Source: an uncultured Chlamydiae bacterium
GTDB lineage: Bacteria; Chlamydiota; Chlamydiia; Chlamydiales; JAJFMA01
Assembly (NCBI GenBank): GCA_963713615.1
Contig: CAVQMM010000001.1
Span: 1,152,001-1,216,000, forward strand
Reading direction: 5' to 3'
DNA length: 64,000 nt
Each line of letters begins with the position of its first letter. Within the stretch, counting starts at the first letter, position 1. Shown here one piece after another: positions 18,404-21,285 of the stretch. The notes under the pieces were generated by a model, which worked only from the letters and a program-made list of their open reading frames with translations, ran no database searches and was not told where the DNA came from. A program made the translations under genes and the position numbers.

Positions 18404-20311
18404 ATGGAATCAACGTCCATTTTTTCAGAAAATCAATGGGAAAAGCGGTATCCGGCTACTGAATATAGGGATCTAAAACAACCCCGCAGAACGCAGTATT
18501 GCCTGCATTACTTGGCGGCCTTGAAACAACCCGTTTCTTCCTTTAAAACATACCTCCAACGAAAAGAAACGGCTGATAAACGAAGAGCCCTTACCAGCGC
18601 CGACTCCCGAAATTTTGGACTCACCCCAATTATGGTTTCCGTTGCACGCGGAGATGTCGACGTCACGAGATATTTACTTGAAGCAGCAAAAGATGCGGGG
18701 TGCTTACCGTGCTGTCTATCTCAAATAGATGACCGCGGCTTTACTGTGTTACATCATGCCATATTTAGCGCTCCCCCACTCGTGCAGGAGCTTCTGGGTT
18801 TGGGTGCCAATGCGGATGCAAAAACCCACGCAAATTGTACCTATCAAGATTTGGAACAATTGGTAGATCCCAATTTGGATGCAGTATCCTCACAAAATTT
18901 AGCATGGAACGATGGAACTGGCCCCGTCCCTTATGTTGGCCTTACCTCTGAGCAGAGAGAAGCCATTGGGATCACCAACTATCGCGATGTTCCCTTTTAC
19001 GGAAATCAAAGAGCTCGTTATGCGCTTTGGAAATCCCTAGGTCCATTAAAACCTACTAATAATGCCGCCATCCGAGCCTCAGCCTCCGCATGGACACCCC
19101 CTAATCTTGAGCTGAAGCCTTGCCCTGAGTTGGGTGACAACCAAATAGGCTTATTTGCCGGCAAGAATTTGCCCTATGGAACTATCTTAGGACCCTTTGC
19201 AGGGGAATGGACTCCAGCTATCCCTGTTTATACCTTTGAGGAGACGATTCAAAAGTACCTATCTGGAGAAACAAGCCATCATCAGTTTCAAGTGCAGAAA
19301 AAGCATATACTGGATGGTAAAAATGTTGGTAACGCGATTTCACGAGCTAACCACGGCTTTCCCGTCAATACAGCAGAGGAGTACGTGCACATTAAGGGAC
19401 GGCCTCCCACGGCCGCGTTAGCGGTCATTGATCCCAATGGAATCAAAAATGGAGACGAAGTACGCTGGAGTCCTGGTCTGAATTCGGCATTGATCTGGTG
19501 CGACCAAAAACTCATTGACCGAGACCAATTACATGCATTCTTCAGGCCGGGACTACCAAGTGTCTTGCAAAGCATGACTAAGGAGAAAAAGCATCCGGCC
19601 AAGTTTAATTTTTTGTGCAGCAATATTATGTCAGTGATTACCATGCCGAAGGCGCTGATCGAGCTTCATCTTAGTGAATTGGTCTCTGCTGATGAATGGT
19701 TGCAGCTACTATTTTCACAGAGTATCGGCAAAACACACTCTCCTATTTCATTTGACGATTTATTAAATGGCCCTCCAAATGGCCCACAGGCAGCAAGAAA
19801 TATTAATGTTTTGCTCTTGGTACTGAATGGGCTCGATCATCAAATGACACAACAGGGAACTAAAACTGCTCTACGACAACGCATTTTGAAATGGCTGTTG
19901 CCACAGGTAGATGACCGTTCCGTCTTCCACCAAGTAAAAGCGCTGACTGATATTAGTAATGCAATTAGCCATGGTCTAATTACAGAGCGATCTTGGCCTG
20001 AATTTGCTACAACTTTGGAAACCACTTTACAAAACTATGACTGGTTTCAGGATGATGCCTCGCCTCTGCATGGCGATAACGCTACCTTCATGAATCTCGG
20101 GATGATGGGGCCTGGAATAGATTTCAAAAAAATGTGGAAAGATTCCCTAATGGAGAACATGAGAGATAACCCTCGTTTCACCGCCGAAAGTCCTGTAATG
20201 AAAGAATGCATCTCGGTAGCTAAGAAACTAGGGATCTCAACTCGCGATATTGAACTAGCACTAGCTCGAGGCATCCAAGCGAGACCTAATCCAAAGCCCA
20301 ATAAAGGATAA
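18404..20311 (+). CDS. Ankyrin-repeat + SET-domain protein, candidate host effector
   Basis: Ankyrin repeats (GLTPIMVSVARGDVDVTRYLL; GFTVLHHAI...LLGLGANAD). SET motifs GLFAGKNLPYGTILGPFAGE, GNAISRANHGFP and IKNGDEV. Confidence 0.78.
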   Translation: MESTSIFSENQWEKRYPATEYRDLKQPRRTQYCLHYLAALKQPVSSFKTYLQRKETADKRRALTSADSRNFGLTPIMVSVARGDVDVTRYLLEAAKDAGCLPCCLSQIDDRGFTVLHHAIFSAPPLVQELLGLGANADAKTHANCTYQDLEQLVDPNLDAVSSQNLAWNDGTGPVPYVGLTSEQREAIGITNYRDVPFYGNQRARYALWKSLGPLKPTNNAAIRASASAWTPPNLELKPCPELGDNQIGLFAGKNLPYGTILGPFAGEWTPAIPVYTFEETIQKYLSGETSHHQFQVQKKHILDGKNVGNAISRANHGFPVNTAEEYVHIKGRPPTAALAVIDPNGIKNGDEVRWSPGLNSALIWCDQKLIDRDQLHAFFRPGLPSVLQSMTKEKKHPAKFNFLCSNIMSVITMPKALIELHLSELVSADEWLQLLFSQSIGKTHSPISFDDLLNGPPNGPQAARNINVLLLVLNGLDHQMTQQGTKTALRQRILKWLLPQVDDRSVFHQVKALTDISNAISHGLITERSWPEFATTLETTLQNYDWFQDDASPLHGDNATFMNLGMMGPGIDFKKMWKDSLMENMRDNPRFTAESPVMKECISVAKKLGISTRDIELALARGIQARPNPKPNKG

Positions 20312-20325
20312 TGAGACAGCCCGGG

Positions 20326-21148
20326 ATCGAGTAGGGGGGAGCCTTCCCGGCTCCCGCCCTCTCACACCACCGTACGTACGGAACCGTATACGGCGGTTCA
20401 TGATCGCTATGACCTAGCGCATACTAGCTTCATCATTGGGATGTAACCCATGGATTCAATTTCTCGGTTTGATAAGGCTCTGTGCATCCCTGGTGTTTTA
20501 GCCATTCTCCATGGCCCCTTACCGCTGTACCCACAATTTATCGCCGAGCGCTCTTTAAGCCCCAAAGCAACCAGACGTTTATGTCGGGTTCGAGGGGTTT
20601 TCCATTGTCTCCATTGGATATCTCTGATTTTCCGTAGGTTGTACGAGGTTCCGCCCCGATTCCTTCGTTTTAGCTTTGGACATTTCTTCTTTTCTGCGAT
20701 TTTCTGTTGTCATAGAAGTTAGGGTCTTTCCTTTGTTTTCATGTTCGGACCTTCATCGTCTTGCGACGAGTTACTATGTCGTCTGCTGACTTCTGTACCT
20801 TTCACGTCATCTCTCCGAGACACCGCTAGCTCATGTCGTTCCCCTCTTTTGTCGGGTAGTAGTCATGCGTGAATACAGATCTCACCGGGTAATTCGTTAA
20901 ACTTTCCTGCTAACCTGTCGCATCTACATTGACTCCTTCTGAGTAAGTATTGGACTTTGGATTTACACGCACCCTTGTCCTAAGAGCCTCTGCCTCTTAT
21001 GCGCTTCCTGTTCGTCAGGTCAGCATTTTGTATACGGCTTTCTTCAGATTCCACCTCGCGATGGACACCCTTGCCTTCTCTAACGGTTCTCCTTACTAGA
21101 GCCCGTAAAGGACTTTCACCTTCTAGTTTAACGACATACCGGTCGCAC
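20326..21148 (-). mobile_element. Group IIC intron, internally deleted (RT lost, both ends and RNA domains retained)
   Basis: 5' end GTGCGACCGG. Class C domain V GAACCGCCGTATACGGTTCCGTACGTACGGTGGTGTGAGAGG. Domain VI ends in CTACTCGAT. Only about the last 75 codons of the IEP remain. Confidence 0.93.
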
Positions 21149-21285
21149 GGTGCTAAAGCGCGAAGCGCTAGCAACCCCGGGTATTGCACGAGACGCCCAT
21201 GCACCGCAAAAAAAGCGGTGCGCGTTAGGGGTTTGCGTCAAATGTTAAATCTTGCCAAATTAGGAAAGGACGTAAAGGACATAAG

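Follow-up and report, generated by a model that had tools for sequence, protein, structure and literature searches.

A review (PMC4424553), in the passages on target choice, lists three specificities, homing sites, transcription terminators and attC sites, and parts of PMC8643678, PMC7161350 and PMC12584367 give the same account of the targets of group IIC introns. In the structure of the E.r. IIC intron, as a passage of PMC10190682 presents it, a 12-bp stem, a 4-nt spacer and the 4-nt intron-binding site 1 (IBS1) put the insertion site 20 nt from the hairpin loop, both spacer and IBS1 being single-stranded. Introns that use attC sites are described in sections of PMC7923331 and PMC3001079 as inserting 'directly after or into' the attC stem, at TTGT/T. 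We analysed two group IIC intron copies, here W1 and W2, in a window of 64,000 nt from an uncultured Chlamydiae bacterium (contig CAVQMM010000001.1, positions 1,152,001 to 1,216,000 of the forward strand), together with their relatives. Judging by sequence, W1 and W2 belong to a monophyletic, mostly Chlamydiae-hosted IIC clade.

In the explanation that we favour, with a probability of about 0.7, the window copies are relics of a distinct IIC clade that inserts 10–15 nt, mostly 11–13 nt, beyond a predicted hairpin loop, at sites where IBS1 is usually part of the predicted stem. Both window copies are dead, and the value of the finding therefore lies in the clade. Our literature search, which left aside supplements and some primary IIC papers so that a prior mention is possible, found no account of this clade or of its short spacing.

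Insertion sites and hairpin loops

Membership of the clade was decided by the 5' sequence of the intron itself, independently of the target. A DNA search gave matches in 28 of the 200 scored genomes of the order and the 5'-end pattern was found in 24 of 401. A protein-based search of viral contigs found nothing. Pattern scans yielded 36 genome loci and 45 metagenome loci, and the named hosts are mostly Chlamydiae. The 100 pattern matches comprised 78 distinct upstream sequences, which were reduced to 68 clade targets by dropping three that were too short and three directly behind another intron, and by merging near-copies. Copies directly behind the 3' end of another intron are seen at L015, L080 and L122; the target of L083 reads as the antisense of another intron's domain VI (DVI) hairpin. 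For controls, viral contigs, Chlamydiota and plasmids were taken as sources of IIC introns, recognized by a domain I (D1) motif; 30 callable sites gave 28 targets.

Insertion occurs 10–14 nt past the loop in 53 of the 68 clade targets (mode 11, median 12) but in only one of the 28 control targets, of which 25 lie at 15–22 nt (median 18). T-rich ends (at least five T in the last eight bases) characterize 20 of the 28 control targets as opposed to two of the 68 in the clade; the P value of the comparison with the controls, 4e-10, is overstated since related introns are not independent. Under a fixed criterion (loop 10–15 nt upstream, tail of at most 3 nt and at least 8 paired bases), 49/68 clade targets pass, compared with 1/28 controls and with 93/1500 and 103/1500 random 40-mers (6–7%). 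All 13 held-out sites are found at 10–15 nt and nine of them satisfy the strict criterion. An earlier inspection of the window, hereafter the sequence-only reading, had proposed that structure guides these introns to palindromes unrelated in sequence, at positions in the 3' arm that no U-tract precedes, and both proposals are borne out by these counts. Its ruler survives as a narrow spacing but not as a fixed distance of 13 nt, which was found in 13 of the 68 targets.

These counts also bear on the idea that we are dealing with ordinary terminator-type IIC introns in hosts that offer hairpins without U-tracts. A passage of PMC1702495 places IIC introns behind terminators 'or other inverted repeats', four of the seven copies in the genome under study lie between convergent genes, and some 3' exons open with T-runs (L060, L095 and L118, also L070 and L129). 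Some targets indeed have the look of terminators in which the intron went in after the stem and ahead of the U-tract. However, other IIC introns, including those of Chlamydiota (L123 and L143, and by eye L128 and L130), keep to 15–22 nt, and where a T-run exists the clade introns sit before it. The comparison with the controls largely refutes this explanation, and we regard it as highly improbable.

Among the 49 passing sites, pairing is predicted for 47, 47, 42 and 36 at positions −4, −3, −2 and −1, respectively, with a dip to 41–44 at −8 to −5. Of 22 targets with a perfect 7-bp core, 13 have a stem that extends to the junction; among the cores of the genome the figure is 179 of 2177 (8%; the two measures are similar, not identical). 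For 25 sites both exons were at hand: pairing continues into the 3' exon (at least four of eight bases) in 15 of them, whereas 60 exon swaps gave 5.9 on average and never more than 10. In the remaining 10 the stem stops no more than 3 bp from the junction, and several of these have a 3' exon that opens with a T-run. Thus, insertion in mid-stem, as the sequence-only reading had it, is common without being obligatory.

A stem of only 7–9 bp and, directly behind it, a free IBS1 might also be enough. Pairing of IBS1 and of the bases beyond it would then be a by-product, as only long palindromes would remain folded for a sufficient time and the intron would take them in a partly zipped state while the replication fork bares the 3' arm, with no invasion of a duplex. 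Some IBS1 sequences are in fact unpaired (13/68 targets have a tail of at least 3 nt, the G251 repeat described below being an example), the dip at −8 to −5 would suit such a model, and longer stems would be more stable by ordinary thermodynamics. Nevertheless, pairing at positions −4 and −3 of IBS1 is as frequent as in the apical stem, and stems reach the junction much more often than in the genomic background, which makes the short-stem model unlikely. It differs from the explanation favoured here only in how the stem opens.

Guide sequences, proteins and resident copies

Exon-binding site 1 (EBS1) occupies positions 3–6 of the d3 octaloop and pairs with exon positions −1 to −4 in 160 of 184 cells (46 introns). 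Shuffling gave 77 ± 6.5 cells with a maximum of 102, and 0/10,000 shuffles reached 160. The weakest pair is at −4, with 13 mismatches. As many as 33 EBS1 variants are found among the 46 introns. A base in the 3' strand of D1, EBS3, pairs with position +1 in 21 of 23 clade introns. Mutual information between intron nt 1–345 and exon positions −30 to −1 peaks only at −1, −2 and −3, with −4 at noise level; neither this analysis nor loop positions 7–8 lent support to an additional EBS2-like or discontinuous pairing. A short EBS1–IBS1 pairing (3–4 bp) together with EBS3–IBS3 and no EBS2 is among the traits of class C introns, and the clade shows it. Of 17 testable sites, 11 offered an equal or better EBS match at 16–25 nt that was left unused; at two of these the match of the site itself is weak. 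CRCC, put forward in the sequence-only reading as the IBS1, precedes two of the 68 insertion sites, namely the two in the window, and cannot serve as a rule when 33 EBS1 variants pair with their own sites and the EBS1 of W1 pairs with CACC at just one position of four.

Intact relatives, among them L041 and L014, encode a reverse transcriptase (RT) of 467–469 aa with a YADD motif, the domains RVT_1 and GIIM only and no endonuclease (En) domain. Their best PDB matches are the RT of GsI-IIC (E 1.5e-139) and that of E.r. In a tree of 58 proteins, 18 clade proteins and one found independently form one branch with an SH-aLRT support of 100, and two integron-adjacent proteins fall on a separate branch. 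Multiple copies at unrelated sites imply that the clade would be mobile. In genome G252, L044 and L070 are 691-nt clade introns without an open reading frame (ORF). Their sequences agree letter for letter and their target hairpins differ, an indication that copies lacking the ORF move in trans. Comparable forms of 665–767 nt are L098, L108, L117 and L129.

BLAST searches of the genome that contains the window found seven 5' ends and five 3' ends of the intron. None of the seven copies in this genome (W1, W2 and five others, A, B, E, F and G) has a whole ORF. Each stands behind a hairpin arm, with loop distances of 11, 13, 13, 13, 13, 12 and 12 nt and IBS ends, in the same order, of AACC, AACT, CACC, CGCC, GATC, TACT and GGCC, W1 and W2 being third and fourth in both lists and the other entries belonging to the five copies outside the window. 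The hairpin of copy G is weak, giving 12 or 13 nt depending on the loop chosen. Copies B, E, F and G share the resident EBS1 GGUA, which explains the RYY endings of the local sites. All seven copies are in leading-strand orientation according to the cumulative GC skew, which fits the preference of class C introns for the lagging-strand template stated in part of PMC8919778. Copy G overlaps an ORF on the opposite strand.

Copy F (G000:C1:2881659-2889735) extends over 8 kb because transposase genes are nested in it: a single gene for 397 aa and two sets of three genes that are nearly identical. From their appearance, these genes may be ISAs1-like and IS66-like. A second, very distant RT fragment (L001, G000:C1:900194-900892) has no RF00029 match nearby.

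Palindromic repeats as targets and the window copies

The target of W1 is a repetitive extragenic palindrome (REP) of the GTAG type with 25 exact-core copies in the genome, five of which surround a Y1 transposase gene (REP-associated tyrosine transposase, RAYT; PF01797, C1:3873041-3873382), REP and RAYT being used as defined in the relevant passages of PMC3733652. Five more Y1 transposase matches (G000:C1:1466375-1466704, 1581528-1581851, 3243412-3243747, 1042783-1043142 and 3256780-3256998) were seen, two of them in frames of 333–344 aa. The target cores of B and E are each present at three loci, and those of A, W2, F and G at one locus each. The single-locus palindrome of W2 is 79% like the target of copy A; W2 is nested in an abundant inverted repeat and copy A lies beside one. 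No clear enrichment of REPs is seen among the targets in this genome, since the three repeated targets of seven are not distinguishable from the 59 of 224 strong hairpins (26%) that are repeated.

In other genomes, repeats are used heavily where they fit. In G251 (= G158), an imperfect palindromic repeat of ∼ 175 nt is matched over nearly its full length at 33 or more places in an assembly of 1 Mb, and 7 of 30 examined copies are filled by the intron at the same base. The target in G252 is likewise a repeat, also present as identical empty palindromes. Empty copies of the target palindrome exist for W1, B, E, G251 and G252, and these palindromes therefore predate insertion.

The strong form of the sequence-only reading, a parasite specific to REPs or miniature inverted-repeat transposable elements (MITEs) that measures exactly 13 nt and uses CRCC as its IBS1, could appeal to the REP at W1 with its flanking transposase gene and to the repeats of G251 and G252. 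Both the ruler and the CRCC rule are nevertheless contradicted by the counts given above, four of the seven local cores are single-locus (one of them overlapping an ORF) and the local share of repeated targets is unremarkable, so this form is very unlikely. What stands is a real use of repeats, without a specific dependence on them; of the two restored palindromes expected to be dispersed, that of W1 is and that of W2 is not. Use of REPs probably follows from the preference for hairpins, as part of the explanation favoured here, with no separate specificity.

Formation of the palindromes by the insertion itself, through snap-back synthesis, or membership of the clade in the IIC-attC lineage, is barely credible. 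Several targets, such as those of W2 and F, are perfect as well as single-locus, and attC introns, too, enter a stem according to a passage of PMC7923331. Against snap-back synthesis stand the empty hairpins listed above, although W2, A, F and G have no empty copies. Against the attC lineage stand the separate branch of the integron-adjacent proteins and the diversity of IBS1, at odds with insertion at TTGT/T of an attC bottom strand: of the EBS1 sequences of 46 introns, none reads ACAA and one reads UUGU (no integron search was made on the clade loci).

Features of the window are collected in Table 1. Rebuilding the empty sites gave, for W2, a perfect 27-bp stem with a 3-nt loop and a junction 13 nt past it, after CGCC, and for W1 a 3-nt loop, a TT bulge, one mismatch and a junction that reads as 13 nt past the loop, after CACC. 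Both hairpins described in the sequence-only reading are thus real, letter for letter, and so are the two introns, though its coordinates had taken in exon arms. Neither copy is an intact retroelement; both are ORF-deleted relics with RT remnants only. The anatomy is that of group IIC (GUGYG start, AY end, domain V (DV) with a CGC triad, and DVI), with Rfam matches to the D1 families RF02001 and RF01998 on W1 and to the DV–DVI family RF00029 on both copies. After ∼ nt 107, the sequence of W2 continues with the latter half of the ORF, with the result that half of the ORF, EBS1, D2–D3 and most of D1–D3 as a whole are gone.

The junction of W1 contains five C, whereas the other 24 REP copies have four C in 21 cases, three C in one and a variant arm in two. 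Its EBS1, GUGU, pairs poorly with CACC but at 4/4 positions with GCAC, one base upstream (−5 to −2). The insertion site of W1 is therefore probably GCAC|CCC. Compared with resident copy G, W1 is a chimera, 92.6% identical over nt 1–480 and 99.7% over nt 514–823 (the last 310 nt), and the change in identity falls at the ORF deletion. We think it likely that an already chimeric, ORF-less W1 inserted at GCAC|CCC, 12 nt past the loop, with the addition of one extra C. As an alternative, a resident intron may have entered a five-C variant of the REP and had its D1 converted later.

Table 1. Features of the two intron copies and adjoining genes, in positions of the 64,000-nt window
Feature	Position	Strand	Remarks
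W1, group IIC intron copy	20326..21148	-	823 nt; D1–D3 and DV–DVI kept; RT ORF mostly deleted
DV (CGC triad) and DVI of W1	20326..20398	-	RF00029 and sequence
W1 EBS1 (GUGU)	20965..20968	-	positions 3–6 of d3 octaloop; pairing with exon
W1 likely EBS3 (G)	20924..20924	-	pairs with +1 C
W1 5' exon	21149..21181	-	REP hairpin 5' arm, 3-nt loop and 13 nt of 3' arm including probable extra C
W1 3' exon	20315..20325	-	remaining REP 3' arm and degenerate foot
Convergent ankyrin-repeat gene	18404-20311	+	stop codon adjoins W1 3' exon
W2, group IIC intron copy	45499..46221	-	723 nt; dead
Intron-encoded protein remnant in W2	45579..46127	-	maturase/thumb domain; Pfam GIIM
W2 5' exon	46222..46264	-	27-nt arm, GTA loop and 13 nt of palindrome 3' arm
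W2 3' exon	45485..45498	-	last 14 nt of palindrome 3' arm
Inverted repeat enclosing W2 palindrome	45435..46330		arms ~46288-46330 and 45435-45480
Gene of convergent pair around W2	44585-45415	+
ACPS-family gene of convergent pair around W2	46341-46706	-

Each arm of the outer repeat around W2 has ∼ 75–110 BLAST matches in the genome; a stricter pattern gave 25 and 13/10 matches and is too strict for counting. Taken at 45419-46344, this inverted repeat runs via T/A tracts to a GTAG...CTAC end pair. The stretch at ∼ 21300-21800 and the flanks of copies B and E are dense mosaics of other dispersed inverted repeats with 100–290 BLAST matches each. The ORFs of 130–141 aa at 21317-23128, for which Pfam gave no match, may not be real genes. 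On the minus strand, 24161-29857 carries a gene for an RHS-repeat protein of 1898 aa that contains DUF6531, and a gene for a 173-aa protein without a Pfam match comes next.

A possible mechanism and its place among known systems

From the IIC anatomy, the spacing, the covariation of EBS1 and EBS3 with the exons, the pre-existing palindromes and the orientation, we infer the following course. The hairpin would fold on the single-stranded lagging-strand template, and the intron–protein particle would dock on its tip and measure from there without a single-stranded spacer. The EBS1 loop would then pair with the next 3–4 bases of the 3' arm, displacing the 5' arm; the lower stem would be opened by the particle or captured before zipping. 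Reverse splicing and fork-primed reverse transcription would follow, as in other IIC introns. With a site ∼ 6–8 nt nearer the loop than in terminator-type introns, the U-tract would never be IBS1 and EBS1 would be free to vary. Any hairpin of 11–13 bp or longer would probably be usable, be it a REP, a long palindromic repeat, a terminator stem or a unique palindrome. A third mode of IIC targeting, next to terminators and attC sites, in which the particle reads a whole stem of ∼ 12 bp including IBS1, unzips its base by RNA strand invasion and inserts, is a tentative extension of this scheme.

Several points weigh against the favoured explanation. The hairpins are predicted minimum-energy folds throughout, 19 of the 68 clade sites miss the strict criterion and eight lie at 15–22 nt; a few near-duplicate or related targets are left among the 68, and such kin are not independent. 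The control set is small and mostly viral, with 78 loci lacking a callable 5' end, and contains no attC sites, whose 5' junctions (L233, L240) were not callable. In 9/28 controls, too, the stem approaches the junction to 2 nt or less, mostly because an A-tract pairs with a T-tract, and a stem-embedded IBS1 is therefore not unique in itself. According to part of PMC1702495, IIC introns use 'other inverted repeats' besides terminators and tolerate 3–11 nt after the stem in RNA reactions. The strand call of copy F, ∼ 14 kb from the inferred origin, is weak. The protein tree comes from a quick search without bootstrap, with two proteins representing the attC lineage. Finally, no RNA or protein feature that explains the shifted register was found: of the 18 clade-specific residues seen, none could be tied to DNA contacts. 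A protein cause of the shift was sought by comparison with E.r. and GsI residues and by a scan for clade-specific columns, with no interpretable result.

In many respects the clade resembles terminator-type IIC introns (B.h.I1, E.r. IIC, PDB 7uim, GsI-IIC, PDB 6ar1, and Ta.it.I1), sharing the CGC triad, an EBS1 of 3–4 bp, EBS3, the lack of EBS2-type covariation, an En-less RT, a 5'-exon hairpin and the leading-strand orientation. It differs from them in spacing (11–13 nt, against 15–22 nt in the controls and 20 nt in the E.r. structure), in the lack of a single-stranded spacer and of a T-rich IBS1, in an IBS1 usually within the predicted stem and in a highly variable EBS1. With the IIC-attC introns (S.ma.I2 type) it shares insertion at or into stem-loops other than terminators, as passages of PMC7923331 describe for them, but it stands apart on the protein tree (from the two integron-adjacent representatives), lacks the TTGT/T consensus and targets unrelated palindromes rather than a single site family; attC spacing lies outside this comparison. 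Dispersed palindromes serve as harmless landing sites also for REP-targeting insertion sequences (IS; PMC1525189) and for the GTAG REP/RAYT system in the consulted sections of PMC3733652, and the W1 repeat, with its GTAG end, has copies beside a Y1 transposase gene as in the latter. Unlike REP-targeting IS, the clade would be an RNA-guided retroelement, not a DNA transposase, and is not bound to one REP family.

As far as sequences can tell, this is a real IIC clade with a shifted, stem-embedded insertion register in an 11–13-nt window. Its RNA numbering (EBS1 at 183–186 versus 184–187 in E.r., EBS3 likewise nearly the same) hardly differs from that of the structural model, in which the protein grips the single-stranded spacer. 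The clade is thus a naturally occurring comparison for two questions, how the register is fixed and whether DNA duplexes can be opened by a IIC particle. If the proposed mechanism is true, these introns would be readers of hairpin shape with a reprogrammable 4-nt guide that colonize REPs and longer palindromic repeats, with ORF-less copies moving in trans. The clade would then show a route by which a IIC lineage may leave the U-tract, diversify its EBS1 and exploit families of repeats.

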